Shown: positions 9,290 through 48,445, counted from the first letter of the stretch. The stretch is 64,000 nucleotides of DNA from an uncultured Gammaproteobacteria bacterium (GCA_964503125.1 CAZCZE010000021.1:13207-77206); one strand, 5' to 3'. Made by a program: numbers and translations. The notes: generated by a model not told the origin, from the letters alone.

Positions 9290-9364
9290 TGGGGCGTAGC
9301 CAAGCGGTAAGGCAACGGGTTTTGATCCCGTCATACGTAGGTTCGATTCCTACCGCCCCAGCCA
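9290..9364 (+). tRNA. tRNA-Gln (anticodon TTG)
   Basis: Acceptor stem TGGGGCG/CGCCCCA, anticodon arm acggg-TTTTGAT-cccgt, T-loop GTTCGAT, encoded CCA. Confidence 0.97.
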
Positions 9365-30227: not shown

Positions 30228-30636
30228 TTCGCGGATAGGACGGATAATCGGGTTGTGTCGGCCGATGAGCTGCGCGCGCGACTGGAGCGCGCGACGGCCT
30301 GCCGATGCCGGCATGCGCGGTGCTCGCGGTTTCCGTGGCGCTGTGTCTCCTTTGCGGCGTTCGGGTCTTCCAGCTCCCGGGACGCATCGAGGTCGCCCAG
30401 CAATACGGATATACAGCGGAGCGTGCGCCGCATTCGTCGACGAGTTGCGCGAGCGCTTGGGTCAGAACGACGCCATCGAGTCCGTCTCGATCCTGCACAA
30501 CGTAGACGGCATGCAGGGGGGGCCTCCGATCGCCATCGGGGAATTGGCGCAGGGCCAGCATTGCAAGCTTGGTAGCCTGTTCCCTTCAACGGGCGTACGC
30601 TTGGCGATTAGCTCCCCGCCAAGAGGGAGGGCCACG

Positions 30637-33600: not shown

Positions 33601-33975
33601 GGCTTCGATACGCTGGACAAGGCGTTCGCAGTGGCCGAGCGAAACGGCGAACGCCACTGGGAAGCCGAGCTGCACCGCCAGCGTGGCGACCTGCTGCTGT
33701 TAGGCCCATCGCCCGATCAGACGGAAGCCGAGCGCTGCTACCGAAACGCGATGCAGGTCGCGCACCTCCAAGGCGCGACGTCGCTCGAGCTGCGGGCCGC
33801 GATGAGCCTCGCCCGGTTGCTCGAGCGCCAGCGCCGGCAGGCAATGGCGCAAGACGTTCTCTCCGAGGCTCATGCCCGGCTCACCGAGGGCTTCGACACC
33901 GTCGACCTGCGCGAGGCGAGCACGCGGTTGGAATCTTTCGTCGCCGCTAGGCATGACAAGCTGCGATCTTCGTAG
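30637..33975 (+). CDS. Double zinc ribbon - class III adenylate/guanylate cyclase - STAND AAA ATPase - TPR protein
   Basis: Four CxxC pairs; FCDLVGST, YVGDG, GETPNLAARLQ; Walker A GEAGIGKS; FEDLHWID; TPR-like tail; GGAGG before ATG 30637. Confidence 0.93.
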   Translation: MNCPRCGTPNRDDRRFCSACGMRLTVACQDCGTQNEPPVRFCGGCGKALPSADAAAARSPFHDIERRQLTVMFCDLVGSTALSRELDPEDLRDLLRRYHEQTRRVIARYGGFIARYVGDGLLIYFGYPHAREDAAVRAIHSGLEITSLVRETAEPLRGNPAGLAVRIGIATGLVVVDDSIGDRVAEDAEAVGETPNLAARLQGLAEPNSVVAADATRELAGGLFVYEDLGLQQLRGFDQPVRAWRVLRTSEAQSRFAAARGTQQTRLIGRDTELGLLHGHWRDAARGDGRLVLLTGEAGIGKSRLAESLADQIAGEPHVTIRYQCSPYHLNTALHPFIHQLELAANLRRNDDLASKVERLEALLADARMEKEEGVPLFAALLSLPALDRYPRLQMTPQQQKQKTLVALLDYVRSSASHSPALLIFEDLHWIDPTSTEFLTLLAPLVASMPVLVVATSRSTTQHDWLQLQHVHTLQLERLDRRHAATMISHLLENENPPANLVNEIMAKTDGVPLFIEELARTLLTAGLPKEHDPASLRQPATIPSTLQDSLMARLDQLGTARKVAQVAAAIGREFSFELLAAIAPLDETELRDALSTLTDGAVLLAREEGATTTFQFRHSLVQAVAYSSLLRSTRRELHQQIAATLESRYPERVRVEPEIIAHHYTQAHEDLRAATYWAAAALRALERSAFVEAQGHVTKGLSLLEGADETDRDRARLTLNLEVLRGAVYRAVKGFASSGAEQSFTHALDLCERLGDTRRLVDVRRGLFACYYSRGTHALAQEQGQEVKALAERLGDSGARMLAHWMLGCVAFWRGELVAADRELEEAIALYDPKQQQANTLALQIDPGANALCHRGWLQWTLGYPDRALQTSEHAIKTARDLNQPFALSMALFFAIVTRTCCGDWEIAARQLEELTSVTTEHGLEYLRSVARVLKGQELIASGELAAGVDETLLALSELETQEAGLGVPWTLSILALGYTRLGKTAEGFDTLDKAFAVAERNGERHWEAELHRQRGDLLLLGPSPDQTEAERCYRNAMQVAHLQGATSLELRAAMSLARLLERQRRQAMAQDVLSEAHARLTEGFDTVDLREASTRLESFVAARHDKLRSS

Positions 33976-33987
33976 GAGCAGGGAAAA

Positions 33988-35490
33988 ATGACCAACAACA
34001 GACTCACGAGCAGCAAGATATTCGAGCCGATCAAGATCGGTAACGTGACGTTCGATAACCGGATCCTGCGATCGTCCGTCGGCGGACGTCATTGCACTTA
34101 CGACGGTACGGTCACCGACGTCTGGAAGAACTTCGAGACGCGCTTCGCGGAGGGCGGCGTCGGCGGAATCATCGCGACGACATTTCACGTGAATCCTCAT
34201 CGGCTTTCACCGATGCAATATCCCTCGATCGCCGACGACAAGTTCATGTTGAACCTCGAGCGGCGCATCCGCGAAATCAAGCGCGCGCGCCCGGGATTGA
34301 AGTACATCATCCAGATCGGCGACCCCGGTTACGTCACGTACGAAAGCCTTTTCAGAGATCCGAAGGACGCGCTGTCTGCGTACGGTGGATTCGATCTCGC
34401 GTTCGGCTATCAAACGTGGCGCAAACCGATGTCCGAGGGGGAAATCTGGCAATCGATCGCCGATCACGCAGAGGCCGCGAGGCGCGTGCGAGAGGTCGAC
34501 GCCGACGGCGTCGAGATCGCGGCCGCCAAAGGCTACCTGATCCACCAGTTCCTGAACCCCGGCATCAATCGCAGGCGGGACCAATGGGGCGGAAACCCCG
34601 AGAACCGGTTTCGGTTCTTTGAGGAAGTCGTCAAGGCAGTACGGAAAGCAGTCAAGGACGACTTTCTCGTCGGAGTCAGGCTCGCGGCCGCCGACCACAA
34701 CCTGAGCCCATTGGCCTTTGCGGCGATGCGCTGGCCGTCACCGTTGCTTGCGTTATCGCGAGAGCGCCGGCACGGCAACGACGAGGCGCAGATGATCGCC
34801 TACGCGCAAAAGCTGCAGAGACGAGTCGACTATCTGCACATCGTGTCGGGTTTCGGTTTCCCGAGCCCGCGCGAGACACCCGGCGACTTCCCGTACGACG
34901 AAGTCAAGATGTTCTTTCACGCGACCCATACGCTGACGGGGAAGACCCGGCTGCGATCGGGGCTGTTGACGTTGATCCCGAAGCACGTCCTGCGATGGGT
35001 GCTGTCGCGCGGGTGGAAGTACGTTCCGGCGATCAATCGCGACGCCGCAAAACGGTTCAAGGAGCAGGTGCGGGACTGCAAGGTCATCGTCAACGGCGGT
35101 TTCCGCGAGCGCGCCACGATCGAAGAAGCGCTCGACTCGGGCTCGGCCGACATGGTGTCGATGGCGCGCGCATTGCTCGCGAACCCCAACTTGCTGAACT
35201 TGCTCCGCGACGGTCACGACGCACCGAACCGTTGCTCCGGCTGCAACAAGTGCGTCGGACGGACCGGAACGAGCCCGTTGGGTTGTTACGACGTACGCCG
35301 GTTCAACGGCGATGTACAACGGATGTACGAAGAGATACTGAAATGGAACGAGCCCGATCGGTTCGACGCCGCCGACCGCGAGCCCTCCGAGCGACAGGAT
35401 GAAGAAGAAACGGCTCCGCCGCCGAATGTCGAGGTCCTGAGGGCTGAGCTCAGCCGCCTATCCCCTGGTGCGCAGCCGGCACCGAAATGA
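33988..35490 (+). CDS. NADH:flavin oxidoreductase (Old Yellow Enzyme family), atypical
   Basis: FEPIKIG...NRILRS, GYLIHQFLNP..NRR.DQWGG..ENRFRF, VNGGFR, SMARALLANP, CSGCNKC. Confidence 0.88.
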   Translation: MTNNRLTSSKIFEPIKIGNVTFDNRILRSSVGGRHCTYDGTVTDVWKNFETRFAEGGVGGIIATTFHVNPHRLSPMQYPSIADDKFMLNLERRIREIKRARPGLKYIIQIGDPGYVTYESLFRDPKDALSAYGGFDLAFGYQTWRKPMSEGEIWQSIADHAEAARRVREVDADGVEIAAAKGYLIHQFLNPGINRRRDQWGGNPENRFRFFEEVVKAVRKAVKDDFLVGVRLAAADHNLSPLAFAAMRWPSPLLALSRERRHGNDEAQMIAYAQKLQRRVDYLHIVSGFGFPSPRETPGDFPYDEVKMFFHATHTLTGKTRLRSGLLTLIPKHVLRWVLSRGWKYVPAINRDAAKRFKEQVRDCKVIVNGGFRERATIEEALDSGSADMVSMARALLANPNLLNLLRDGHDAPNRCSGCNKCVGRTGTSPLGCYDVRRFNGDVQRMYEEILKWNEPDRFDAADREPSERQDEEETAPPPNVEVLRAELSRLSPGAQPAPK

Positions 35491-38400
35491 CGGCGGCCGC
35501 TGCGCATTCGCCGAGGCGGCGGTAGCTTTCCCACTGCTCGTCGGTGAAGAACTGGTCGAGCGTCGAATCGTGCGGAAAATGCAGATTGCGGGCCGCGTAT
35601 GAACGGAGGTCGAGCGGCATATCGCCAAGCCGGCTCGCATTGATCATCAACAACCAACACGGCGTCCCACCGTTATCGTAGTCGACGCGCGCCAACGCGC
35701 TGGAGTGACGTCCGAGACGCCCGATCTCCCACAGAGACCCGACGCCGGCGGGGTCGACCCACTCTCGAACCCACTTTGGAACGTGGCCGTTCGGGTCGAG
35801 AGCGGACCAACGGCCACCACCGGGCGGCGCTGGTCTCGGCTCGAGCCAACTGATCTCGGCGCCGAAGTCCAAACGGGCGCGCCGCATGAGCAGCGCGATC
35901 GCCGCCAGCTGATAGTCCTTATCCTCCGTCGCATTCGCGCAGATCATCAAAGCCACACGCCGGCGCAGCAACTCGTAGACGCCGGTCTCCTCGAAGTGCC
36001 CGCCGTCGCTCAGATACCAAAGCCGCTCGGAGGGTCCCGTGAAGTACCCCCGCCACTCGTTCAAGATCGCCGCGTGCGCGGGGAATATCCGCGCAACCGA
36101 GGACTTCAGGCGCCGCAGCAGTGCCGGCGGGTAGCGGCCGGGCCTCGCGCCGCCTTCGATGCCGGAGTTCCACCAATAGCCGAGCCGGATGTTGAACAAG
36201 CCGAGCAGCAGCGACGTCGGCAGGCTGGTGTGCCGCCCCAAGCCGGTCCCGAGCGCCGCGCCGGACGTCGAGATCCACTGGCTCAGCATGAGCGGCTCCA
36301 CGGGCGCCGGCTCGCCGCTGCGCTGTGCGAGCACATGAAATGCGCCCGGATCCGTGCCGCTCGTGACGGCCGTGAGGCCCGCCCGGAGCGCATGCGGGTC
36401 GTCCGCATCGGGTTCCCACAGCGCGTGGAACCGTCTACCGACGCTGACACCGCTCGGACCGACACACATCGACAGACCTTTGTCGAGACGCAACGGGCGT
36501 GCCGAGGCTGCATCGACCGTCTCGTTGACGCAGGCGTTGATGAGGTGCAGCGGTCCGCCGTAACGCTGTGGGTCGTACTCATCGAACGGCAAGTCGTCCC
36601 CGGGATCCGCCGCCTGCACTTCCGAGTTCGCGTCCGCGGGCCTTGCATGCACGCGGGTTGGGTTCGCGGCTCCGAGGAAAGCGCGGCTCAAGCGCGCGGC
36701 ATACAGCGCCTGCAACGAGAGCGTGTTCGGAAAGTCGCTCGACTGCCCGATCGCGAGCGACAGCCCGAGCGCGGCGAGCAACAGCCAGATCCCGAGAGTG
36801 CGGCTCGACTCGAATGCCGAGTGCACGAGAAGATCCAGGGTGAACAGCAGGAAGCCGAGCAACACGAACGCCAGCACCCACCGCACGAATCGGCGCAACC
36901 AGCGACTCAGAACGGAGAACGACCCTTCTTCGCCGCGGACGAGATTCTCGACGAACGCGCGCAACACGGGCAGCGCGGCCGCAATGCCGGCCATGCCGAC
37001 CGTCGCCATCGGCAGCATGCCCGTCACGGTTGAGCGGCGCGCGAGCGCGTCGAGCGCTACCCAACCGGCGCAGATCGCGACGAGTAGCAAGCTTTCGCCG
37101 GCCGCGCGCGTGAGCCGGTTGCGGGCGAGATCGCCGCGCAGCTTGAGCGGCGCCGCGGCACGCCAGCGCACCGCCTCCTGCGCGACCCAAGCGAGCACCA
37201 GCAGCAACAAGGCGAGCGGCGCGTAGGGCCGCAACTGCGGCACGCCGAGCGCGGATACCGCGGCCGCGAGCCCGAACAACCAGACTGGAATCGAGGCGCG
37301 CGGATGCTCCAGCGTGCTGGCGCGCGGCGGAGCGAGCCAGTACGCGAGCGTAGTCGGCACGAGCGCGACTGCGGCCACGACGACCGGCAGCCACCACCAG
37401 GGCCCGAGCGGGATCCCGAGCAGCGTCACGCCGTCGATCTGCGCGAACACCGTGTCGGCGGCCAACCGCAAAGTCGCGAGCGCCGCGACGAAGAATGCGC
37501 CGATGCACACGTGCACCGCGAGCAGGTTGCGCCAGATCGTCGCGATGTTCGACGTCAAGTCCGAGCGACCTTCGCCCGAGATGTAGTTTGCATGCGTGCG
37601 GAGCCACCACATTTCCGGGGAACCCGTATCGGCGAGCGCGGCTTGCACGCGTCGCGGCATGTGAGCCATGTCCTTGCCGCGCATGAACAGTCTGCCGAGA
37701 AAGGCCCCGATATAGCCGCCTCCCGATACGGTCGATAGGAAATCGATGCCGCGGAACCGATCGCAGCGCGCGAGCGCCTGCACGACGCCCAGCGCGAAGG
37801 TCGCACTGCGGATACCGCCGCCCGACAGAGCGAGCCCGACCGCGTCCGCGGGCAACTTTGCGTCGGCCGGGTTCGCCGGAGGCGGCGGTGGCCGATCGAT
37901 CGCGAGCTCACGCCGCCTATGCACGGCCCTCGCCTCGGCGGCGCGCAGGTGACGCGGATATTCGCGGCGGTCTGCGAGCAGCACGTCGGCTGCCTTCTCG
38001 CCGATCATGAACACCGACGCAGCGATGAAGTAGCCGGGGATCTCGGGAAACACCGACGCATCGACGACGCGTAGACCCTCGACGCCGTACACCCGGAAAT
38101 CGCTCGAAACGACTGCGTCGGTCTTTTTCGTATCGGGGCGCCACGCGTCGGAACCCATGCGACACGTGCCGCACGCGTGGTGGCCCCAAGCTTGGTACTT
38201 GACCCACTCCTCGAGCACACGCGAGTAGTCCCCGGCCTGCGGGCCGGGCTGAAGCTCGGACTTGAACGGCTTGATCGTCGCGTTGAGCTTGCGCACCCAC
38301 TCGATTCCCTCGAGCAGCGTCGTGACATCCTTGTCCGCCTCCTCCGAGCTCTCGTCGAAGTAACGGAAGTTGATCACCGGCTGCTCGAACGCAGAATCCG

Positions 38401-40138
38401 ACCGAAGCTCGACCGTACCGCTGCGATTGCGCGTGTGGCCCTGCAGGAGGACCCACGTCCACAGCCTCCGGGTCAGCGCGTGCTCGGGCGGCCACGTCAT
38501 GTCCCCGAGGCGCAGGACGGTGCTCAGCAATTGTCTCGACCAGCCGTGGTAGTAACCACGAAACGCCACCGGGAAGCCCACGATCAGCAGGTCCGGCTCC
38601 TCGCCATAACGAGGCTCGTCGGTGGTCATGAAGATCGCGAGCGCACCGCCGTTCGTCGCGTAGAGCCCGCGGCCGGTCCTGAGCCACTCGTCGCGCGCGC
38701 GATCCCCGTCGTGCCCTGGCTGGAACGACACGGTGCGTAGCGTCCGGAATTCCTTCTTCGTCTCGCTGATGATGCTGATCTCGTTGCGGTCCTGAAGGTA
38801 GCGCCCGACCGCCGGCAAATGGACGATTTCGCCGACCTTCGCGCCGTCGTGGCCCTGCAGTCCGTCGATGCCGTGCTTCTGCAACTGTTCCTTGTCGCCG
38901 ATGCCGCTCAGCATGAGCAGCTGCGGTGTGTTGAAGACACCGGCCGAAAGAACGATCTCGCGCGAAGCATAGAACCGCTTCAACGGAGCCTTCTCCGCGG
39001 CCTGCGCGCAGAAGCGTGGACTCGCGTCGTAAAGGTGCGCCCCGCAACGCACTTCAACGCCGATGGCGCGCGGCGTTTCACCTTCGACGTGGTCGGCGAA
39101 AATCACGCGCGTGACGTGCGCGCCGGTCAGAATCACGAGCCGATCCGGATGCCGGGTGGCAGTCTCGCGCAAATGCTCGCGAACACCGACGCGACGGCTG
39201 CCGTCGGTGCCGATCGGGATGAACGACAGCGTCGGGTTGTCCGTCGCGCGCGGCGTGTCGAGGTTCGGGTCGAGATACTTCACCCACTGCGTCACCAACA
39301 CGCGCTTGAGCAGCTCGCCGATACCTCCGGCTCGGAGCAGATGGCCGAATACTCGCAGGATTATGCGGCGGAAGGTCCCGTCTCGCAGTGCGATACCGAC
39401 GACGAGCACCGGATCGATGAAGCTCGTCTTCTGCCAACCGGCGAACCCGTGCCCTCCGCCGTCGAGTGTCAGGCGCGGATTCAGGAAAGCGACGAGGTGA
39501 CGCCAGCCGCTGTAGAAAAACCCGAGGGCCCTACGAAAGAACCCGTGGTACTGCGTGTAATAGAGGCAATTCTCGACGCGAGTGAAGTAGCCGTTCATTT
39601 TCTCCGCGCGCCAGCTATCGTCGTGCGTCAGGCTGGCGATTCGGTTCCAGTCGCCGGCCGGAGGCTTGACCACGATCATGGCGTGATGCGCCGTGCAGCC
39701 GCCGAGCGCGCTGGAACGCGGATAGTGCACGCCGCCTTTCGGCCCATCCCCGCCCTTCGAGGGGTCGGTGCGGATGTCGTACTTCAAGTCACGCTGTTGC
39801 AGCTCGTCGTCGTCGTAGTGACGCACCGAGTAATCCCAGTTCAGCACCTCGTCCTCGGCCGCGGCGGGGTGATAACCGGGGATGCGATAGACCTCGCGCT
39901 CCTCGCGATCGTTCGGGGCGCCGTCGGCATCGGCGCGCGGCGGCACGAACGGACCGCCCGTTTCCGTGTGCGGCAATCCGGGGTCCAATCCCGACTCGAT
40001 GACGAGCACGCGCAGGCCTTCGAGGGCGAGGCGCGCCGCCAACGGGCCGCCACCGGCTCCCGACCCGACGACGATGTAATCGAACGGGGTCTCCTCGTGA
40101 GCCTGCGCCTTCTCGATCAGCTCGTGGACAGTTGGCAT
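35450..40138 (-). CDS. GMC oxidoreductase - patatin/cPLA2-like phospholipase fusion with membrane helices (1562 aa)
   Basis: GSGAGGG, WGHHACGTCRMG, RVVDASVFP; then LALSGGGIRSATF, STVSGGGY, many hydrophobic helices, and LSDGGHFE. GAGG before ATG 40138. Confidence 0.88.
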   Translation of the reverse strand: MPTVHELIEKAQAHEETPFDYIVVGSGAGGGPLAARLALEGLRVLVIESGLDPGLPHTETGGPFVPPRADADGAPNDREEREVYRIPGYHPAAAEDEVLNWDYSVRHYDDDELQQRDLKYDIRTDPSKGGDGPKGGVHYPRSSALGGCTAHHAMIVVKPPAGDWNRIASLTHDDSWRAEKMNGYFTRVENCLYYTQYHGFFRRALGFFYSGWRHLVAFLNPRLTLDGGGHGFAGWQKTSFIDPVLVVGIALRDGTFRRIILRVFGHLLRAGGIGELLKRVLVTQWVKYLDPNLDTPRATDNPTLSFIPIGTDGSRRVGVREHLRETATRHPDRLVILTGAHVTRVIFADHVEGETPRAIGVEVRCGAHLYDASPRFCAQAAEKAPLKRFYASREIVLSAGVFNTPQLLMLSGIGDKEQLQKHGIDGLQGHDGAKVGEIVHLPAVGRYLQDRNEISIISETKKEFRTLRTVSFQPGHDGDRARDEWLRTGRGLYATNGGALAIFMTTDEPRYGEEPDLLIVGFPVAFRGYYHGWSRQLLSTVLRLGDMTWPPEHALTRRLWTWVLLQGHTRNRSGTVELRSDSAFEQPVINFRYFDESSEEADKDVTTLLEGIEWVRKLNATIKPFKSELQPGPQAGDYSRVLEEWVKYQAWGHHACGTCRMGSDAWRPDTKKTDAVVSSDFRVYGVEGLRVVDASVFPEIPGYFIAASVFMIGEKAADVLLADRREYPRHLRAAEARAVHRRRELAIDRPPPPPANPADAKLPADAVGLALSGGGIRSATFALGVVQALARCDRFRGIDFLSTVSGGGYIGAFLGRLFMRGKDMAHMPRRVQAALADTGSPEMWWLRTHANYISGEGRSDLTSNIATIWRNLLAVHVCIGAFFVAALATLRLAADTVFAQIDGVTLLGIPLGPWWWLPVVVAAVALVPTTLAYWLAPPRASTLEHPRASIPVWLFGLAAAVSALGVPQLRPYAPLALLLLVLAWVAQEAVRWRAAAPLKLRGDLARNRLTRAAGESLLLVAICAGWVALDALARRSTVTGMLPMATVGMAGIAAALPVLRAFVENLVRGEEGSFSVLSRWLRRFVRWVLAFVLLGFLLFTLDLLVHSAFESSRTLGIWLLLAALGLSLAIGQSSDFPNTLSLQALYAARLSRAFLGAANPTRVHARPADANSEVQAADPGDDLPFDEYDPQRYGGPLHLINACVNETVDAASARPLRLDKGLSMCVGPSGVSVGRRFHALWEPDADDPHALRAGLTAVTSGTDPGAFHVLAQRSGEPAPVEPLMLSQWISTSGAALGTGLGRHTSLPTSLLLGLFNIRLGYWWNSGIEGGARPGRYPPALLRRLKSSVARIFPAHAAILNEWRGYFTGPSERLWYLSDGGHFEETGVYELLRRRVALMICANATEDKDYQLAAIALLMRRARLDFGAEISWLEPRPAPPGGGRWSALDPNGHVPKWVREWVDPAGVGSLWEIGRLGRHSSALARVDYDNGGTPCWLLMINASRLGDMPLDLRSYAARNLHFPHDSTLDQFFTDEQWESYRRLGECAAAAVISVPAAHQGIGG

Positions 40139-40182: not shown

Positions 40183-43100
40183 CTAGAGCGTGCGTAGGAA
40201 CGCTTTGAGCTGCCGCTTTTCGTCGTCCGACAGCGGCTCTGCGAACCAATGGCCCCGGTCGAGCACGAAGTCCGGGCTCTTGTTGATGCGCAGCAGCGCG
40301 AGCCCGGCCTCGCGCTCGAACTCTGCAAGCACGTCCGCGTCCGTCACCCTATCCGCCTCAACCTCCACACAAGGTTTGTGCGCCGCTAGCAGCCGCGCCT
40401 TGAAACCGGCGCGTAGCAATGCCGAGAGTCCGTTCGCAATGTCGCCTCCGGCCGCCGACGAGCTCGCGTTGATGACGAGACTCACGGGCGTGCCTTTCGG
40501 TATCGGTCCGACGATGAGGTCTCCGCGCCGGCCCGACGTGAACTCGTTGAGCCACCAGCCGAGGTACAAGCTGAGGGCCGCGAGCAAGGCGAATGTCGCT
40601 CGTGCGAGCCAGCGCCGACGATCGCGTGCCCAGAACAACAACACGACCGCCACGGCTACGGTCGCCACAGGCCCCACCCACGGCCAGATGCCGAAGACAT
40701 AATCGAGGCGGGTGACGACGAGAACGGCCGCGTTGAGGACCGCGATCAGAAACAGTGCAAACGCCGCATGGCGGGCGCGCCCCGCGGCCGCGAACACGAG
40801 GCACGCGGCGGCGAGCGCAATCCAGAGGTACAGGGTTGCGACCCGCGTCCCGAACGGGCCCAGCACGCTCTCGAACAACGAACGAATGAACGGCTCCCGG
40901 AAAATGAAACAGCTCTCGGCTGTCGTCCGGTAGATGAAACCCGGGTCGTTGCCGGCGAGCTCGGGGTGCGTCAAGCGCAGGTCGCCGGGCCGGGAATTTG
41001 CGCTGGGTTGCCGCCGGTCTTTCCAGAGCAGCTTGTCGATACCGTCCTCGAACGCGAGCAGTCGACCTTCGATGGACGGATCTCGATTTAAGAGCCCTAG
41101 CGCATTGTTATGCAGGTACGGTGCCGTCGCCCAGAGGCCGATCAGGGACGGCGGCCGGTAATAGCCGGGTCCGCCGGACGGCGGGTAGTAGACATCGTTG
41201 TTGCCCCAGACATCGAGCGGCGCGCCGGAATAGGGATTGTAGAAATGCACGGGCCCGACGGCCGGCAGGCTCTTGTAATCCTCCGAGGAGAAATTGTCCC
41301 AGACCTGTCCGCGCATCGCGTTCGTGCCGACGGCACGCTGAGAGTTCGTGCCGACGAGCGTGACCGGGACACGGATGTCCGTCGAAAGAAAATTGTCTTC
41401 GAGGAAGGGGTCGGTCGCCGCGGCCGGCGTATCGGCCGGGGTACCTGCGATCGTACTGATTTGCCGCACGTAGCCGGCATACGCCGCGCTGTTCGTGAAC
41501 CTCTCCCAGTCCGCGAATGTGCGCGGCAACACGAGCCGCGTGAAGGGCCACGCCGTCGATCCCGAGTGCTCTTCCCAGTCGTCCGCGAACTGAAGTGCGA
41601 ATCCTTCGGGCTGCTTGCTCGAGTGGCAGATCGCGCAGTTCGCGATGAACACGGCGCGGCCGGCGCTCGCGCGCGCGCGCTCCTCCTCCGAGATCGGCGG
41701 GGCGCCTCGCGCGCTCGCGAGCGGCATCGGTGGCGCGACGTTGGCTCCGGTCCGCGGGTTCTCGTAGAGGAAGTAGTCGAGAATCGCCGGCACTCGATAC
41801 TTTAGCGAGGTGCGCCAATAGACGGAATTCGCGCGCAGGCTCGCGACCGAGAACGGCCGTTGCCCGCGGAAACCGATGATCGGCCGCGACGTGCGGGCCC
41901 ACTCCTCCGAAAACGTGCCGATGTTGAGGTACACGCGTGCGACGGAGGCTACCGCGCCGATGCTGTCGCCGCCGTCGACGAGCATCCGCGGCGTATGGCG
42001 CGGCGTAACCCTCGCATCGCTCTCCTCGAGCGACGGCACGAGCAGGCTCGCGCGACCTTGCTCTTCGGGCGGGTTTCGCATCGCGCGGTCGACCCGGGCC
42101 GGCAAGTCGAACACCGCGTTGATCGTGTTCGAGTTGTTGATGTGGTCGGAGCTGAGCAGCGACGTGTCGACGGTGCCGGGCTGTTGGCTGTTGAGGAAGT
42201 GGAAGAAGAAGGACTTCTCGTCCGTGAGATTCGCGAAGAGTCGGACGGGCGTCCAGTATTGATTGCCGATCGTGCTCGACAGATTGCTCCACGCGGGCTC
42301 CGCGGGATCCGCCGGCGGGTTCAGCGGGTGCGGCGCGACGTGGCAATACGCGCACGACATGCCGACGCGAAACGGCCGAACCAACTTGGGGTCGCCGTGG
42401 ACGTCGCGAGCGAGGTCGTAGAACGCGTCGCTCGAGTCCTCGACGCGCTCCTTCCAACGGAGACGCGCTTCTCCGGCCTCTGTGGTGTTGCCGAAAAAAT
42501 CCGGGTTCAGCATCAGACGTAACCCGATCACGCCGCTCGGATACCCGTAGACGAGCGGGTCGACGCCGTCCTTCGGCAGGCGCTGGATGGTGTCCTCGTA
42601 GAGCTCGCGGTCACCCGGCTCGAACGGCTCGTAGAGCCCGGTCGGCTGCGGCCGAGGCGGCTCGGACATCCCCACATCGGCGTCCGCTTCCGGCGGCCGC
42701 AACAGGATCTCGTCGCCGTTCGCTTCGTCGAGATAGAGGCCGAGCAACTTGCGGGCGGGATCGGTCTGCGCCCGCATGCCGGGCTGATTGATCATTCCGC
42801 GGTCGCGGAAGCGAAACGCGCGCTGACGCGAATCGAGCAGAACTAGAAAGTCGACGAGGCCGAAGCCGTGCTGCTGTGCCCAGTTCCAGAATTCGTCGTT
42901 GCCGCCAGCCCACAGCATCCAAGAGTTCTTGCCGCGAATGGCGTCGCGCGCGTCCGGTGTAACGCGCGCGTCCGCGGGGACAGGCGCGCCATCAGTGAAG
43001 TCGAACGGCTCGAGTTGACCCGTGGGCCCGACGATCTGATCCATTTCGTGGAACAGATTGCGTGGTTCCACCGGAAACGAGTCGTCGTCGCGCTGCCAAA

Positions 43101-43341
43101 CAGGCGTACCGCTTGCCGTGTGGCCGCGCTGAGGCTCGTCTTGCGGCGCGGCGGGATCGGCCTCCGTCTGCCACTGCTCCCACCCTTGTTCGGAGGAGGG
43201 TGCCCGCGCGGCCTGAGGAAGAGGTGTCGCGCCCCGATCGTCGCCGCCCTCGCGCACGAGCAGGACGACGACGGCGACGAGAGCCGCCGCATAGAGCAAA
43301 GATTGGCGCCTCGCCCCGTGACGCTGCTGCCGACGCTTCAT
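40183..43341 (-). CDS. Membrane-anchored di-haem c-type cytochrome, RoxA/di-haem peroxidase-like (1052 aa)
   Basis: CAYCH (42340-42354), CAICH (41623-41637), PSLIGLWATAPYLHNN, C-terminal RGHWF..LSDDEKRQLKAFLRTL; N-terminal anchor plus about 4 internal TM helices. Confidence 0.8.
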   Translation of the reverse strand: MKRRQQRHGARRQSLLYAAALVAVVVLLVREGGDDRGATPLPQAARAPSSEQGWEQWQTEADPAAPQDEPQRGHTASGTPVWQRDDDSFPVEPRNLFHEMDQIVGPTGQLEPFDFTDGAPVPADARVTPDARDAIRGKNSWMLWAGGNDEFWNWAQQHGFGLVDFLVLLDSRQRAFRFRDRGMINQPGMRAQTDPARKLLGLYLDEANGDEILLRPPEADADVGMSEPPRPQPTGLYEPFEPGDRELYEDTIQRLPKDGVDPLVYGYPSGVIGLRLMLNPDFFGNTTEAGEARLRWKERVEDSSDAFYDLARDVHGDPKLVRPFRVGMSCAYCHVAPHPLNPPADPAEPAWSNLSSTIGNQYWTPVRLFANLTDEKSFFFHFLNSQQPGTVDTSLLSSDHINNSNTINAVFDLPARVDRAMRNPPEEQGRASLLVPSLEESDARVTPRHTPRMLVDGGDSIGAVASVARVYLNIGTFSEEWARTSRPIIGFRGQRPFSVASLRANSVYWRTSLKYRVPAILDYFLYENPRTGANVAPPMPLASARGAPPISEEERARASAGRAVFIANCAICHSSKQPEGFALQFADDWEEHSGSTAWPFTRLVLPRTFADWERFTNSAAYAGYVRQISTIAGTPADTPAAATDPFLEDNFLSTDIRVPVTLVGTNSQRAVGTNAMRGQVWDNFSSEDYKSLPAVGPVHFYNPYSGAPLDVWGNNDVYYPPSGGPGYYRPPSLIGLWATAPYLHNNALGLLNRDPSIEGRLLAFEDGIDKLLWKDRRQPSANSRPGDLRLTHPELAGNDPGFIYRTTAESCFIFREPFIRSLFESVLGPFGTRVATLYLWIALAAACLVFAAAGRARHAAFALFLIAVLNAAVLVVTRLDYVFGIWPWVGPVATVAVAVVLLFWARDRRRWLARATFALLAALSLYLGWWLNEFTSGRRGDLIVGPIPKGTPVSLVINASSSAAGGDIANGLSALLRAGFKARLLAAHKPCVEVEADRVTDADVLAEFEREAGLALLRINKSPDFVLDRGHWFAEPLSDDEKRQLKAFLRTL

Positions 43342-43525
43342 TTTCGTTTTCTCCCCCAGGCTCGAGCCGGGGTACGCGGTTATACGAAGCGGAAAGGAGC
43401 CTCAGCGCTGCTATCTTATGTAAGTTCTCTCCAAAACGTTAGCTCTCGTAGCCAAGACGGCTGCGCGCGGCCGGGTAGTGGCGGTTGCGAGGACCGTGAA
43501 CCGGTCGCCGGCCGTCGACATCGCA

Positions 43526-43569
43526 CCCGACGGCCGGCTGCTCATGCTGTTTCCCGTCGACTGGGGCCG
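43526..43569 (+). repeat. Right direct repeat of the 13.3-kb block
   Basis: 43526-43552 is identical to 30183-30209 and continues cccgtcgactggggccg. Confidence 0.92.
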
Positions 43570-43684
43570 CGTTGCCGGCGAGGGCCCCGTCGAACTTGGC
43601 CTTAGGACCGCAGTCGAACTCGAGTCGGTCGAGCCGGCGCCGTGCTACCGTAATGGCAACAATAATGAGCTCCGGGGGATGCCC

Positions 43685-46438
43685 ATGAAGTCGCTCCACG
43701 CTGTTCGCGTTTGCTGCCTGTCGTTCGCCCTCCTCTTCACCGCCGTCGCCGCCGCGCAGGGGCCGCTGCCCGCCGGCATCACGCACGTCACGACCGTGGA
43801 AGGGATCGCCGAGTACCGGCTCGCGAACGGTCTGCGCGTGCTGCTGTTCCGCGATCCTTCGAAGGCGACGATCACCGTCAACATGACGTACCTCGTCGGC
43901 TCGGCCGACGAGAGCTACGGCGAGACCGGCATGGCGCACCTGCTCGAGCACATGCTGTTCAAGGGCTCGACGAAGTACCCCGACATCCTCGCCGCGATCC
44001 GCAGCCGCGGCGCACAGTTCAACGGCACGACGTCGTGGGACCGCACCAACTACTTCGAGACGTTCGACGCGACCGACGCCAACCTCGAGTGGGCGCTCGA
44101 TCTCGAAGCCGATCGCATGATCAACGCCTTCGTCGCCCAGAGCGACCTCGACACCGAGATGACCGTCGTGCGCAACGAGTTCGAGTCCGGCGAGAACAAT
44201 CCGACCGGCGTGCTCTACCAGCGCGTACTGAGCACGGCGTACCTCTGGCACAGCTACGGCAAATCGCCGATCGGCAGTCGCAGCGACATCGAGGGCGTCC
44301 CAATCGAGCGCTTGCGAGCGTTCTACGAGCGCCACTACCAGCCCGACAACGCCGTGCTGGTCGTCGCCGGGCGGTTCGAGGAGCCCCGCGTGCTCGAGCT
44401 CATCGCCGGTAAATTCGGCCCCATTCCGGTACCCACGCGCGTGCTCATCGACAATTACACGATCGAGCCGACCCAGGACGGCGAGCGCGAAGTCATCGTC
44501 CGGCGCGTCGGCGACGTGCAGATCCTCATGGCCGGTTATCACGCACCCGCCGGCACGCACACGGACTTCGTGCCGTTGCAGTTCGCCGCGGACGCGCTCG
44601 CCGACGAGCCCGGCGGGCGACTCTACAAGGCACTCGTGCAGACGGGGCTCGCGTCGCAAGTAGCCGCGCAGACCCTGCAGCTCCGCGACCCCGGCATGAT
44701 CGTCTTCTTCGCGCTGGTTCGCGAAGACGCGTCGCTCGACGAGGCGCGCGCCGCGATGATGAAGACGATCGACGACTTGCGCACGAACCCGATTACGGCC
44801 GAAGAGGTCGAGCGCACGCGCAACCAGGCGCTGTCCGGCTTCGAGCGGCAAATGAACAACACACAGGCCATCGCCGTGCAGCTCAGCACTTGGGCGTCGA
44901 TCGGCGATTGGCGTCTATTGTTCCTCGACCGCGATCGCGTCCGCGCAGCGACCGTCGCCGACGCGCAGCGCGTCGCGCTCGAGTACTTCAAGAGCTCGAA
45001 CCGGACCGTCGGCCTGTTCATCCCCGGCGAGCCGGACCGCGCCGAGATTCCGGCGCGGCCCGACATCACGGCCATGTTGCAGGGCTACAAAGGCGACGAA
45101 GCGCGCTCCGAAGGCGAAGCGTTCGAGCCGACGCCCGCGAACATCGACGCCCGCACGTCCCGCGTCGACCTACCGAACGGCATCAAGCTCGTCATGCTGC
45201 AAAAGGAGACGCGCGGCGATGCGGTCAATGCCCTGATCCGTTTGAACTACGGCGACGAGAACAGCTTGAAGGGTGTGGGCCAATTCGCGGGGCTCATGAC
45301 GCCGATGATGACGCGCGGCACTCGCGAGCGGTCACGGCAGGAAATCCAGGACGAGCTCGCGCGCCTACAAAGCACGCTCGGCATCGGCGGCAGCCCGGGC
45401 CTCACGTCCGCGAACATCCAGAGCACGCGGGCGAATCTTGCGGCGACGCTCGAGCTCGCGATCGACGTGCTGCGCGAGCCCTCGTTCCCGGAAGACGAGC
45501 TCAAGACGCTCAAGGACCAGCTGCTCACGAGCATCGAGGCGCAGCGCAGCGAGCCGCAGGCGATCGTCGCGCGCGCTTACGGCCGGCACTGGGGGCGCAA
45601 CTATGCGCGCGACGACGTGCGCTACGCCGCCACTGTCGACGAGGACATCGAGTTCATCACGCGCGCCACGGCAGCCGACCTGCGCAGGCTGCACTCGGAG
45701 TTTTTCGGCGCTACGCAGGCCGAGGTCGTCATTGTCGGCGACTTCGATGCCGACGCGATCCGCGCGCTGCTCACCGAACGGATGGGCGATTGGCGCAGCC
45801 CGAAACCCGCCAGCGACGTGTTGAACCTCTATGCCAACCTCGCAACCGACCCGAAGACCGAGCTGTTCAACACGCCCGACAAGGAGAACGCCTTCTTCCT
45901 CGCCGGAATGCGGATCGAGATGCGCGATTCGCATCCCGACTACCCGGCGCTCGTGCTAGGCAACTACATCTTAGGCTCAGGCGCGGCCTCGCGGCTGTTC
46001 GGCCGCATCCGCGGCCGCGAGGGCTTGAGCTACGGCGTGGGCTCGGGCTTCAGCGCGTCGCCGCGCAGCGACGGCGCCTCGTTCACGGTGAACGCGATCT
46101 CGGCGCCGCAGAACAGCGAGCGTGTCGAAGCGTCGTTCCGCGACGAGCTCGCGACGATCTTGCGTGACGGCTACACGGAGCAGGAGCTCACCGAAGCGAA
46201 ACGCAGCTGGGCGCAGCAGCGCCAGGTCGCTCGCACCCAGGACGGCGGGGTGGCCAACACGCTCGGCTTATGGACGCACGTCGGCCGCACGATGGCGTGG
46301 GACGCGGAGCTCGAGGCGCGCGTGCAGGCGCTGACCGTGGAGCAAGTTCGCGACACGATGCGCCGGCATCTCGACGTGAGCAAGATGACGTTCATGCGCG
46401 GCGGGGACTTCGAGGGCGCGGCGGGCGGCTCGCAGTAG
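43685..46438 (+). CDS. M16 zinc peptidase (pitrilysin/PqqL-like, double domain), secreted
   Basis: Signal peptide MKSLHAVRVCCLSFALLFTAVAAAQ; AHLLEH (HxxEH); NGTTSWDRTNY; second half with RGREGLSYG. Confidence 0.93.
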   Translation: MKSLHAVRVCCLSFALLFTAVAAAQGPLPAGITHVTTVEGIAEYRLANGLRVLLFRDPSKATITVNMTYLVGSADESYGETGMAHLLEHMLFKGSTKYPDILAAIRSRGAQFNGTTSWDRTNYFETFDATDANLEWALDLEADRMINAFVAQSDLDTEMTVVRNEFESGENNPTGVLYQRVLSTAYLWHSYGKSPIGSRSDIEGVPIERLRAFYERHYQPDNAVLVVAGRFEEPRVLELIAGKFGPIPVPTRVLIDNYTIEPTQDGEREVIVRRVGDVQILMAGYHAPAGTHTDFVPLQFAADALADEPGGRLYKALVQTGLASQVAAQTLQLRDPGMIVFFALVREDASLDEARAAMMKTIDDLRTNPITAEEVERTRNQALSGFERQMNNTQAIAVQLSTWASIGDWRLLFLDRDRVRAATVADAQRVALEYFKSSNRTVGLFIPGEPDRAEIPARPDITAMLQGYKGDEARSEGEAFEPTPANIDARTSRVDLPNGIKLVMLQKETRGDAVNALIRLNYGDENSLKGVGQFAGLMTPMMTRGTRERSRQEIQDELARLQSTLGIGGSPGLTSANIQSTRANLAATLELAIDVLREPSFPEDELKTLKDQLLTSIEAQRSEPQAIVARAYGRHWGRNYARDDVRYAATVDEDIEFITRATAADLRRLHSEFFGATQAEVVIVGDFDADAIRALLTERMGDWRSPKPASDVLNLYANLATDPKTELFNTPDKENAFFLAGMRIEMRDSHPDYPALVLGNYILGSGAASRLFGRIRGREGLSYGVGSGFSASPRSDGASFTVNAISAPQNSERVEASFRDELATILRDGYTEQELTEAKRSWAQQRQVARTQDGGVANTLGLWTHVGRTMAWDAELEARVQALTVEQVRDTMRRHLDVSKMTFMRGGDFEGAAGGSQ

Positions 46439-46552
46439 GTCGCGACGCCGTTCCTCGGGCAAGTAGATCTCGCAAGTCCGCGCTGAATCGTCTTGAATCG
46501 TTCTGATCGGGTCGCCGCGCCCGCCCGGCGCAATTTCCGGTATCGTCGCGCC

Positions 46553-48445
46553 ATGAATCGCCCCCGCTCTTCGCGCCAGCACTACGACGTCTTCCGCAAG
46601 CACTACCGCGAGGGCACGCTCGACGACGTCACGCCGGGCGCGACGCCGGCCAAAGCGGCGCCCGGCGCGAAGCGCCGCGACTACCTCAAGGACTATCTGC
46701 GCTGGCTCTGGCCCGAGCGCTGGGCCGTCGTGGTCATCTTCTCGCTCGCGATCCTCACGGCGGGGCTCGAGATGATCGAGCCGCTGTTCATGCGCTTCAT
46801 CACCGACCGCGTCCTGCTCGACAGCACGGCCGCGACGCCCGACCGCCTGAGGCTCCTCAACCTCGCGGGCGGCGCGTTCCTAGGCGTCATCACGCTGTCG
46901 GCGGCGCTCAACCTCACCCGCGACTACCGCCAGCGCCTCGTCAACACGCGCGTGATGCTGTCGCTGCGGCGCTCGCTGTTCGAGCGGCTGCTGCGCTTGC
47001 CGCTCGCGACGCTCTGGGACATGAAGACCGGCGGCATCCTGTCGCGGCTCTCGGGCGACGTCGATTCGACGACGGGCCTGCTGCAAATGGCCATCGTCTC
47101 GCCGTCGATCTCGGTGATTCGCTTAGCGATCGCCGTGACCGTGCTCACGGTGTTGAACTGGCAGCTCGCGCTCGTCGCGCTCGCGGTCATTCCCGGTGCC
47201 GTGCTCATCAGCTTCACGTCGGCGAGGCGCATTCGGCCGATCTACCGCTCGATGCGCAAGGACGTCGAGGGCATCGACGGTCGCGTCGGCGAGACGTTCT
47301 CCGGCATTCGCGTCGTGCGCGCCTTCGGCCGCGAGCTGCGCGAGATGCTCGAGTACGCGCGGGGCCGCAACTCCCTCGTGCGCAAGGAGCTGTTCGCGCG
47401 CCGTCGCGAGCTCTGGCTCTGGACGTCGTGGGGCTTCGCGCTATCGGCCGTCAACGTCGCCATCGTCTGGTACGGCGGCCACCTCTACATGGCGGGCGAG
47501 GCTTCGATCGGCGACATCATGGCGTTCCAGTGGTATTCGTTCCTGCTGCTGAACCCCGTCTGGCAGATCGTCAACTCGTTCTCCGAGCTCCAGCGCTCGC
47601 TCGCGGCCACGGAGCGCGTGTTCGAGGTGCTCGCAATGCCGAGCGACAAACCCGACCGGCCCGACGCGCGCGACGCGCCGCCCGCCGTCCGCGAGATCGA
47701 GTTTAAGGACGTCGAGTTCGAGTATCGTGAGGGCCGGCCCGTTGTGCGCGAGTTCAACGTCAAGGTGCCGGGCGGCACCGTGGTCGCGCTCGTCGGCCGC
47801 AGCGGCGCCGGCAAGACCACGGTGACCGATCTCGTCGCGCGGTTTCACGACCCGACGCGCGGCCGGATCTTGCTCAACGGCGTCGACGTCCGCGACTTGC
47901 GGCTGCGCAGCTACCGCGACCTGTTGGCGATCGTGCAGCAGGACGTGTTCCTGTTCGACGGCTCGGTGCGCGACAACATCGCTTACGGGCGCCACGCTGC
48001 GACCGACGCCGACGTCGAGGACGCCGCGCGGCGCGCCAACGCGCACGAATTCATCGTGAACCTGCCCGAGCGCTACGACACGTTCATCGGCGAGCGCGGC
48101 GTGAAGCTCTCGGGCGGCCAGCAGCAGCGGCTCGCGATCGCGCGCGCGATTCTCGCGGCGCCGCAGATCCTGATTCTCGACGAGGCCACGAGCAACCTCG
48201 ACACCGAGAGCGAGCAGCTCATCCAAGCGTCGATGGCCGAGCTGCTCAAGGGCCGCACGACGTTCGTGATCGCACACCGCCTGTCGACGGTGCGCCGCGC
48301 GGATCTCATCCTCCTCATGGACGACGGCCGCATCGTCGAGCGCGGCACGCACGCGGAGCTCATGGCGCGCCGCGGCCTGTACCACGAGATGGTCGTGCGG
48401 CAGATGGCCGCCGACAGCCAGGAAGTCGGCGCCGCGTGGCAGTGA
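46553..48445 (+). CDS. ABC exporter, fused permease/ATPase
   Basis: TM domain, GRSGAGKT, LSGGQQQR, ILDEATS, IAHRLST. Confidence 0.93.
   Translation: MNRPRSSRQHYDVFRKHYREGTLDDVTPGATPAKAAPGAKRRDYLKDYLRWLWPERWAVVVIFSLAILTAGLEMIEPLFMRFITDRVLLDSTAATPDRLRLLNLAGGAFLGVITLSAALNLTRDYRQRLVNTRVMLSLRRSLFERLLRLPLATLWDMKTGGILSRLSGDVDSTTGLLQMAIVSPSISVIRLAIAVTVLTVLNWQLALVALAVIPGAVLISFTSARRIRPIYRSMRKDVEGIDGRVGETFSGIRVVRAFGRELREMLEYARGRNSLVRKELFARRRELWLWTSWGFALSAVNVAIVWYGGHLYMAGEASIGDIMAFQWYSFLLLNPVWQIVNSFSELQRSLAATERVFEVLAMPSDKPDRPDARDAPPAVREIEFKDVEFEYREGRPVVREFNVKVPGGTVVALVGRSGAGKTTVTDLVARFHDPTRGRILLNGVDVRDLRLRSYRDLLAIVQQDVFLFDGSVRDNIAYGRHAATDADVEDAARRANAHEFIVNLPERYDTFIGERGVKLSGGQQQRLAIARAILAAPQILILDEATSNLDTESEQLIQASMAELLKGRTTFVIAHRLSTVRRADLILLMDDGRIVERGTHAELMARRGLYHEMVVRQMAADSQEVGAAWQ

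Follow-up and report, generated by a model that had tools for sequence, protein, structure and literature searches.

Two adjacent genes, A and B, lie on a 64,000-nucleotide (nt) stretch of DNA from an uncultured Gammaproteobacteria bacterium (GCA_964503125.1 CAZCZE010000021.1:13207-77206; the whole stretch is termed the window, and positions are counted from its first letter), and we present them as a candidate new pathway in the form of a two-gene membrane module. Gene A encodes a 1052-amino-acid (aa) protein with two c-type haem motifs whose homology to the RoxA/FadCCP-type di-haem enzymes is supported by sequence comparison, and a bundle of four transmembrane (TM) helices is inserted into its second haem domain. 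Gene B encodes a GMC oxidoreductase fused to a patatin-like lipase. Together these features suggest that the gene A protein is a periplasm-facing haem oxygenase or peroxidase situated on the bilayer, metabolically coupled to the gene B product and acting on unsaturated acyl or isoprenoid chains, a reading to which we assign a probability of about 0.5. The features of gene A are the following.

40183..43341, minus strand: gene A, open reading frame of 1052 aa for a di-haem c-type protein placed in the RoxA superfamily, anchored at its N-terminus and carrying four inserted TM helices
43243..43311, minus strand: N-terminal signal-anchor, residues 11-33 (hydropathy; AlphaFold2 helix 6-30; K/R-rich, predicted cytoplasmic tail before it)
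42340..42354, minus strand: haem motif 1, CAYCH, residues 330-334 (C330, C333, H334), invariant in 49/49 homologues
41623..41637, minus strand: haem motif 2, CAICH, residues 569-573 (C569, C572, H573), invariant and preceded by a class-I cytochrome c N-terminal helix
41104..41133, minus strand: WATAPYLHNN, the 'MauG motif', residues 737-746 (H744), identified through PF21419 and hhalign
40534..40848, minus strand: inserted four-helix TM bundle, residues 832-936 (gapped in TM-less relatives; AlphaFold2 helices; loop charges)
40186..40260, minus strand: C-terminus DRGHWF...LSDDEKRQLKAFLRTL (H1031, then the closing helix of cytochrome domain 2), with D1028-F1033 invariant

The original prediction, made from the DNA alone, had described two CxxCH motifs about 240 aa apart, a WATAPYLHNN sequence, a GH...LSDDEK..L..FL.TL ending, an N-terminal anchor and about four TM helices between the last two motifs, and all of these were recovered in the protein. 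The CxxCH motifs number exactly two, CAYCH at residues 330-334 and CAICH at residues 569-573, with 239 residues between them, and a scan of the whole protein for the variant haem motifs CxxxCH, CxxxxCH and CxxCK found none. WATAPYLHNN occupies residues 737-746, the C-terminal end of the protein (residues 1028-1052) reads DRGHWFAEPLSDDEKRQLKAFLRTL, and the hydrophobic segment at about residues 11-33 follows a K/R-rich tail, MKRRQQRHGARRQS. A Shine-Dalgarno sequence, GGGGGAG, stands 8 nt upstream of the ATG. A protein search returned more than 889 homologues in which the architecture is retained; the best 120, with the window's own 100% entry excluded, are 933-1151 aa long, share 49-80% identity over 91-100% of the length and are named only 'hypothetical protein' or generically 'cytochrome c'. 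An alignment of 49 homologues (50-81% identical) demonstrated that C330, C333, H334, C569, C572, H573, H744 and H1031 are invariant in all 49, as are D1028, R1029, G1030, H1031, W1032, F1033 and about 130 further positions. The periplasmic part of about 900 aa holds more than 200 invariant or near-invariant positions besides the haem motifs. Given this invariance, the features of gene A are not products of chance.

The AlphaFold2 model of the gene A protein was built with 48 homologues and reached a mean predicted local distance difference test score (pLDDT) of 81 and a predicted template modelling score (pTM) of 0.84. In the hydrophobic block the model places helices at residues 816-853, 856-877, 886-904 and 910-935, followed by a C-terminal alpha/beta region whose last helix spans 1039-1051, while hydropathy analysis of residues 831-937 resolved three strong hydrophobic segments and one weaker. 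When 30 TM-type and 46 TM-less sequences were aligned jointly, residues 832-936 were gapped in at least 80% of the TM-less relatives. The TM bundle is thus a real insertion into the second haem domain. The relatives come from a search of 1.84 billion representative proteins with a profile built on residues 545-775, the haem-2 domain, which yielded 750 clusters (50% identity) at E <= 1e-3, 211 of them at E <= 1e-30. Among the complete TM-less relatives (P0182, P0201, P0219, P0241, P0243 and P0249; 670-725 aa), an export signal (signal peptide or lipoprotein box), a pair of CxxCH motifs, WATAP[FY]LHNN and the ending PDFV.D[RH]GH.[FY]G..L.D.[DE]K.ALI.Y.K[TR][FL] are found with no hydrophobic block. 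Relative P0171 (794 aa) carries two inserted helices, and a crude hydropathy count over 140 complete sequences sorted the proteins into classes with 0, 2 or about 4 helices between the two motifs, that is, with the even numbers that the topology demands.

The charges flanking the helices point to the orientation of the bundle. Across the gene A family the mean number of K+R versus D+E is 2.1 vs 0.5 in the N-terminal tail, 1.5 vs 0.1 in the TM1-2 loop and 2.7 vs 0.2 in the TM3-4 loop, and the two classes of charge are balanced in the putative periplasmic stretches. The bundle loops fit the positive-inside rule and a predicted out-in-out-in-out path, with the N-terminus inside and both the large domain and the C-terminal region outside. 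This predicted topology would make the two haem sites and the C-terminal His periplasmic, and the periplasm is where the Ccm system attaches c-type haem. Within the bundle, W840, D880, W888, P891 and W904 are conserved in the gene A family alignment. A b-type haem or quinone site in the bundle was also considered and found to be unsupported, His858 being only 59% conserved and no other candidate ligand being conserved.

Profile searches connect the protein to the RoxA superfamily. The Pfam family PF21419 (RoxA-like_Cyt-c) matched the full gene A protein at 27.1 bits and the domain alone at 29.3 bits, passing the gathering threshold of 26.7, and the match spans just 18 residues, or 18 of the 39 profile positions. 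The best-scoring named family was the NCBIfam model NF040606 ('di-heme cytochrome c peroxidase'), which matched at 37.2 bits (E 2e-9) over profile positions 293-444 only and below the cut-off of 150 bits set for this 524-position model. Both matches recur across the gene A family: 13/13 members tested were matched by PF21419 (E <= 0.01) and 13/13 by NF040606 (best E 3.7e-10). Matches to RoxC (17.2 bits) and RoxB (15.4 bits) were confined to residues 726-748, and the RoxA model was not reported; the cut-offs of the RoxA, RoxB and RoxC models (NF050033, NF050034 and NF051462; 1000, 900 and 900 bits) were not attained. Weak matches to Cytochrome_CBB3 and CcoP cover the haem-motif-2 segment, and PF03150 (CCP_MauG) gave no match at E <= 1. 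By curated thresholds, then, the gene A protein is outside RoxA, RoxB, RoxC, NF040606 and PF03150.

A group of shorter proteins supplies the remaining link. The neighbourhoods of the relatives comprise 85 loci, and in 33 of these, short N-terminally anchored di-haem proteins of 465-510 aa are encoded beside the TM-less relatives, often as tandem pairs (loci L092-L103, L107-L111, L122 and others; for example L122:1084-2478, minus strand). The short proteins exceed the NF040606 cut-off (170 vs 150 bits), match RoxC, RoxB and RoxA at E 4e-21 to 7e-16 and, as a profile, match the RoxA structure 4b2n_A at E 1.2e-23, with WATAPYFHNG and GGH..L.D.E..ALIEYIKTL as the shared motifs. Residues 508-522 of RoxA in 4b2n are GAWATAPYFHNGSVP (displayed in the alignment as GAWATAPYFH517NGSVP), and the RoxA C-terminus, GGH641DFTQSLTDSERWALIEYIKTL, ends 21 residues past His641 just as the gene A protein ends 21 residues past His1031. 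The gene A family was compared with these short NF040606-type proteins by hhalign, whose default output held one 21-column match and whose alternative alignments gave four. The four matches are collinear and correspond to haem site 1 (E 4e-4), haem site 2 (E 7e-6), the WATAPY.HN motif element YRPPSLIGLWATAPYLHNNA (E 3e-4) and the C-terminal element GHWFAEPLSDDEKRQLKAFLRTL, which was matched to GHLYGTELSADEKQALIEYLKTL (E 8e-5). Chaining hhalign with the 4b2n match equates His744 of the window's protein with RoxA His517, the 'MauG-motif' His, and His1031 with RoxA His641. The latter is the second axial ligand of the C-terminal haem in RoxA (PMC4496055). On these equivalences the TM bundle has been spliced into the second cytochrome domain between the structural His and the sixth ligand of the haem.

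Comparison with characterised enzymes brings out both the kinship and the peculiarity of the protein. RoxA (Xanthomonas sp. 35Y, 4B2N), RoxB and RoxC, rubber oxygenases that cleave poly(cis-1,4-isoprene) oxidatively, resemble gene A in their pair of CxxCH motifs, in the MauG-type motif (WATAPYFHNGSVP) and in a distal His at the C-terminal end. The resemblance to RoxA extends to the near-identical WATAPY[FL]HN, to the ending G-H-x-F...L-[ST]-D-x-E-[KR]...TL, with its His 21 residues from the C-terminal Leu, and to the hydrophobic substrate that is expected. RoxA is, however, a secreted and soluble protein of about 70 kDa with a cleaved signal peptide, whereas the gene A protein is anchored and carries a 105-residue TM bundle between the two His residues; the spacing of the CxxCH motifs is 199 aa in RoxA compared to 239 aa in gene A (PMC4496055), and the N-terminal haem domain of gene A is not alignable to that of RoxA, whose distal-pocket residues are Phe317 and Trp302. 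Closer in spacing are the FadCCP proteins of Pseudomonas aeruginosa, the 10S-dioxygenase PA2077 (245 aa) and the 7,10-diol synthase PA2078 (235 aa), which are RoxA-related, periplasmic and active on unsaturated fatty acids (PMC4496055). Compared by tabulated values, both have the MauG-type motif, a distal His near the C-terminus and a C-terminal Leu, as does gene A (PMC4496055). Their di-haem genes stand in tandem, an arrangement also seen among relatives of gene A, and this two-gene oleate-diol synthase is the nearest precedent. They are shorter than the gene A protein, at about 630 aa, lose their signal peptide by cleavage, lack a TM bundle and have no reported GMC or patatin partner.

Proteins of the NF040606 family likewise share both haem sites, APYLHN and GH.[YF]G..L...K.AL.EYLKTL with gene A, but are half its size and have neither the long N-terminal domain nor the internal TM insertion. 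Bacterial cytochrome c peroxidases (bCCP) and MauG agree with our reading of gene A in being di-haem proteins with one reactive and one electron-transfer haem. YhjA/QPO differ in having a third haem and a single N-terminal helix (PMC10301912), as against the two haems, polytopic insertion and anchor helix of gene A. The original prediction had taken the relatives in this superfamily to be soluble, which does not apply to all of them: a TM helix is predicted in E. coli YhjA (PMC10301912), and an N-terminal anchor is present in the short RoxA-like paralogues described above. A search of a literature library found no paper on the family, the TM insertion or the GMC-patatin pairing.

Conservation across the TM and TM-less families limits the potential haem ligands to His334, His573, His744 and His1031; no Met is conserved. 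For the RoxA-like PA2077, one axial His is given for the N-terminal haem and a pair for the C-terminal haem, the MauG-motif His being a separate entry (PMC4496055). Homology with RoxA and PA2077 suggests that the distal site of haem 1 in gene A may be open or weakly occupied, as in a catalytic haem. By this analogy haem 1 (His334), having no conserved sixth ligand, is presumed to be the catalytic haem, and haem 2 (His573/His1031) would be its bis-His partner as in RoxA. The more than 200 conserved positions of the periplasmic part also argue for an enzyme.

The partner of this protein is encoded immediately downstream.

35450..40138, minus strand: gene B, 1562 aa, GMC FAD (flavin adenine dinucleotide) oxidoreductase (residues about 1-740) plus patatin-like lipase (residues about 766-1562), assigned by Pfam and PDB matches

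A gap of 44 nt separates gene B from gene A, and gene B has a ribosome-binding site of its own, GAGGTGA. Its GMC part matches PF00732 (GMC_oxred_N) at 56.7 bits and PF05199 (GMC_oxred_C) at 94.8 bits, and its closest PDB relatives are alcohol oxidase, choline oxidase and fatty-acid photodecarboxylase (E 1e-28 to 1e-22). The patatin part matches PF01734 at 28.0 bits (cut-off 27.7) and contains SGGGIR (772-777) as the oxyanion element, VSGGG (804-808) with the nucleophile Ser and DGGH (1378-1381) with the catalytic Asp, the nucleophile motif TVSGG departing from the canonical GxSxG. About eight TM helices (residues 868-1133) split the patatin domain between its oxyanion/Ser half and its Asp half. 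In gene B and 61 homologues (62 sequences) GSGAGGG, AWGHH, SGGGxRS, VSGGG and DGGH are conserved; the first two are the FAD motif (GxGxxG) and the active-site His motif of the GMC part. No signal peptide is present and the number of TM helices is even, so both catalytic domains are probably cytoplasmic. Direct electron transfer from FAD to haem was rejected on topology, as the two would lie on opposite sides of the membrane.

The pairing of the two genes was examined in 84 gene A-type loci, of which 80 are contigs chosen as one genome per species and 4 were reached through individual homologues (a Rhizobium plasmid, Dongia soli and two metagenome-assembled genomes). A gene B homologue (about 1540 aa, about 8 TM) adjoins gene A in 79 of them, directly downstream in 78 and divergently in 1; in the other 5 the contig edge falls within 380 bp of gene A. 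Carriers belong to at least six phyla (Alpha-, Beta- and Gammaproteobacteria, Verrucomicrobiota, Planctomycetota, Myxococcota and Acidobacteriota), and the flanks of the pair are otherwise unrelated among loci. Pairwise A-A and B-B identities over 26 loci are correlated at r = 0.93, which is consistent with A and B travelling as a unit. A conserved third gene was sought in the 84 loci, and only a DUF4331-like secreted protein was found, in 16 loci and absent from the window. This protein (a weak match; about 650-750 aa) is encoded directly downstream of gene B, for example at L043:14761-17013 (plus strand). A sigma-70 promoter scan returned 0 promoters, and terminator-like sites occurred at background level.

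The relatives with fewer inserted helices keep similar company. In the operon of the two-helix relative P0171, the GMC enzyme (635 aa) and the polytopic patatin (930 aa) are encoded after it by two individual genes, and TM-less relatives are accompanied by polytopic patatins with 8-12 TM helices and by GMC genes, the latter in 25/85 loci. Stand-alone patatin-like proteins of at least about 930 aa with 8-12 predicted TM helices are encoded at L085:5225-8017, L101:2437-5253, L154:1195-3984 and L135:1536-5750. Since they lie beside two-helix and TM-less relatives, the split polytopic patatin also exists as an independent module outside the GMC fusion. Flavin mononucleotide (FMN) reductases of the old yellow enzyme (OYE) type occur in 14/85 loci, directly downstream in at least 11 (14 counting L094, L095 and L098). 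One TM-less relative's locus adds a FadL/Toluene_X porin, and one or two of the short RoxA-like di-haem paralogues often stand beside TM-less relatives. Further recurrent neighbours of the TM-less relatives are a 350-aa protein (7 loci) and a 434-aa membrane protein (5 loci), neither with a Pfam or NCBIfam match, and a FAD_binding_4 oxidase lies near them in 6 loci; examples of the three are L110:1-1050, L137:4807-6108 and L139:4218-5576.

These observations can be assembled into a provisional mechanism. The gene A protein would begin with a cytoplasmic N-terminus, cross the membrane by one anchor helix, form a periplasmic haem domain of about 800 aa and then pass through the inner membrane as a four-helix hairpin pair; its last 115 or so residues would be back in the periplasm, where they would provide haem 2 with its sixth ligand, His1031, and complete the second cytochrome domain. 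Haem 1 would be the likely site of reaction with O2 or peroxide. With the active domain pinned to the outer leaflet by the bundle, a hydrophobic chain of the bilayer (an unsaturated acyl chain, a free fatty acid or an isoprenoid) would be the probable substrate. On the other side, the Ser-Asp lipase of the patatin domain and the GMC FAD domain of gene B would face the cytoplasmic leaflet on an eight-TM platform. The lipase might free or remove an acyl chain at the inner leaflet, the di-haem domain of gene A might oxygenate it or process it peroxidatically, and the GMC domain might then oxidise the resulting alcohol, with the OYE ene-reductase handling an enone in the relatives. Within this scheme, the motifs, the insertion, the reasoning on topology, the chain of homology and the linkage of the genes are what the analysis shows, and haem ligation, the class of substrate, the order of the steps and physical contact between A and B are what we infer.

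The nature of the partners bears on how the steps could be joined. Flavoprotein partners have no export signals while the di-haem proteins are exported lipoproteins or anchored, which suggests coupling through a metabolite rather than through electrons. The polytopic patatin-GMC fusion, as an obligatory neighbour, strengthens the reading in which the substrate is a lipid or polyisoprenoid. By analogy, the recurring set of lipase, one to three di-haem enzymes, GMC enzyme, ene-reductase and porin resembles a lipid or oxylipin-type pathway. A bolder and distinctly tentative extension, which we think somewhat unlikely as a whole, would make A and B a trans-membrane lipid-oxidising machine: a chain would be excised at the inner leaflet, handed across the bilayer by both bundles, dioxygenated in the periplasm and finished by the GMC domain. 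Such a machine would amount to bacterial oxylipin production or to oxidised-lipid remodelling of the cell's own membrane, and the TM-less forms with OYE, GMC, FadL and short di-haem proteins would be its soluble ancestors.

Several results weigh against the assignment of the gene A protein to a lipid-directed haem enzyme. The 'RoxA-like di-haem' designation of the original prediction stands at the level of sequence, through PF21419, NF040606 (13/13) and the chain from hhalign to 4b2n; structural comparison with Foldseek gave no significant match. The full model returned spurious helical-membrane matches, and 4B2N was absent; a model of residues 40-815 (pTM 0.83) placed MauG first, its chains 4l1q_A and 3sxt_B being the sole matches below E 2, at E 1.4-1.7, probability 0.02-0.03 and TM-score of about 0.2, with 4B2N again not among the matches. 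The haem pockets are low-pLDDT parts of these cofactor-free models. Searches of PDB sequences, whether started from the protein itself, from the family profile or from the profile of the haem-2 domain, recovered only generic cytochrome c subunits and no RoxA, CCP or MauG, and the N-terminal residues, about 540 in number, match no known family in Pfam or NCBIfam. Any co-inherited pair of genes would be expected to show such a correlation of identities (r = 0.93). Typical bacterial lipids, moreover, are monounsaturated.

A further point on this side is that four conserved His residues for two haems would also make two bis-His electron-transfer haems. The gene A protein could on that count be purely a carrier, a membrane di-haem cytochrome c shuttling electrons for the GMC dehydrogenase, and this would agree with a flavoprotein being always encoded adjacent and with the sole PDB sequence matches being cytochrome c subunits (CcoP and the cytochrome subunit of alcohol dehydrogenase). 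Yet the FAD domain appears to be cytoplasmic (no signal peptide, an even number of TM helices) whereas c-type haems lie in the periplasm, neither bundle has a conserved redox cofactor site, the conserved periplasmic residues besides the haem motifs (more than 200) go far beyond a carrier's need, and the homology is to the RoxA and NF040606 enzymes. We consider a carrier role improbable. Somewhat better placed, although still rather unlikely in our judgement, is a quinol-dependent peroxidase or mini redox chain, in which electrons would run from a quinol site in the bundle through haem 2 to haem 1 for the reduction of H2O2 or a lipid hydroperoxide, the GMC domain of gene B reducing the quinone pool. 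The bundle does sit in the electron-transfer (C-terminal) haem domain beside the His1031 ligand, and the closest named family, NF040606, is a 'di-heme cytochrome c peroxidase'. Membrane-associated GMC dehydrogenases that reduce quinones are known. Membrane-anchored, quinol-linked CCP relatives also exist in YhjA/QPO, but these have three haems where gene A has only two CxxCH motifs (PMC10301912). Moreover, the bundle contains no conserved His, Glu or motif resembling a quinone site, PF03150 is without a match, the patatin domain is left unexplained, and TM-less lipoprotein relatives with cytoplasmic OYE or GMC partners could not use such a route even though they keep the same gene partnership.

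The compactness of the two-gene cassette, its variable contexts and its occasional location on plasmids would also suit a conflict or defence module, with the patatin as a membrane-destroying effector of the CBASS CapV type and the di-haem protein as a periplasmic redox or stress sensor. Patatin effectors are frequent in defence systems. PADLOC, however, matched neither A nor B, the flanks hold no conserved nucleotide-signalling, NTPase or toxin-antitoxin partners, and the conserved FAD active site together with the OYE, GMC and FadL partners of the relatives points to metabolism, so that a defence role seems very improbable.

To our knowledge, RoxA-type di-haem oxygenases are represented by very few characterised enzymes, namely those of rubber cleavage and the oleate diol synthase of P. 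aeruginosa. The results presented here indicate that the superfamily has a large, phylogenetically broad and functionally unannotated branch (750 clusters; more than 889 close homologues) whose members are apparently membrane-held and encoded with lipases and flavoenzymes. The architecture of the gene A branch is unusual in its four-helix membrane hairpin pair inside a cytochrome c domain and in its strict pairing with a split GMC-patatin fusion. If the assignment to lipid oxygenation is true, many rhizobia, Paraburkholderia, Verrucomicrobia and planctomycetes would make or process oxidised lipids by a new route, with a bearing on bacterial oxylipin signalling, membrane repair under oxidative stress and hydrophobic-substrate biocatalysis; the trans-membrane machine, should it exist, would be widespread in soil and rhizosphere bacteria.

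One further gene of the window may be associated with the pair.

33988..35490, plus strand: OYE-type FMN oxidoreductase (Pfam Oxidored_FMN), 500 aa, with a C-terminal CxxCxxC...C, possibly associated with A and B

This gene is convergent with gene B, their 3' ends overlapping by 41 nt, and its product shares 51% identity over 447 aa with the OYE whose gene lies immediately downstream of the TM-less relative P0182 (L087). The CxxCxxC...C pattern is presumably of the [4Fe-4S] type, as in enoate or 2,4-dienoyl-CoA reductases. An OYE gene lies beside only 1/84 TM-type loci, and its link to A-B is therefore uncertain. Upstream of the OYE gene, positions 30253-33975 (plus strand) encode a 1240-aa STAND-like signalling protein with a double zinc-ribbon, an adenylate/guanylate cyclase domain, an AAA_16 ATPase and TPR repeats. 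Divergent from gene A, positions 43478-46438 (plus strand) encode a 986-aa tandem M16 (insulinase-type) peptidase with a signal peptide, which is followed at 46493-48445 (plus strand) by an ABC exporter with a fused TM domain. The sole Rfam/ARAGORN match in the 64-kb window is a tRNA-Gln (anticodon TTG) at 9290-9364 (plus strand), far from the locus.

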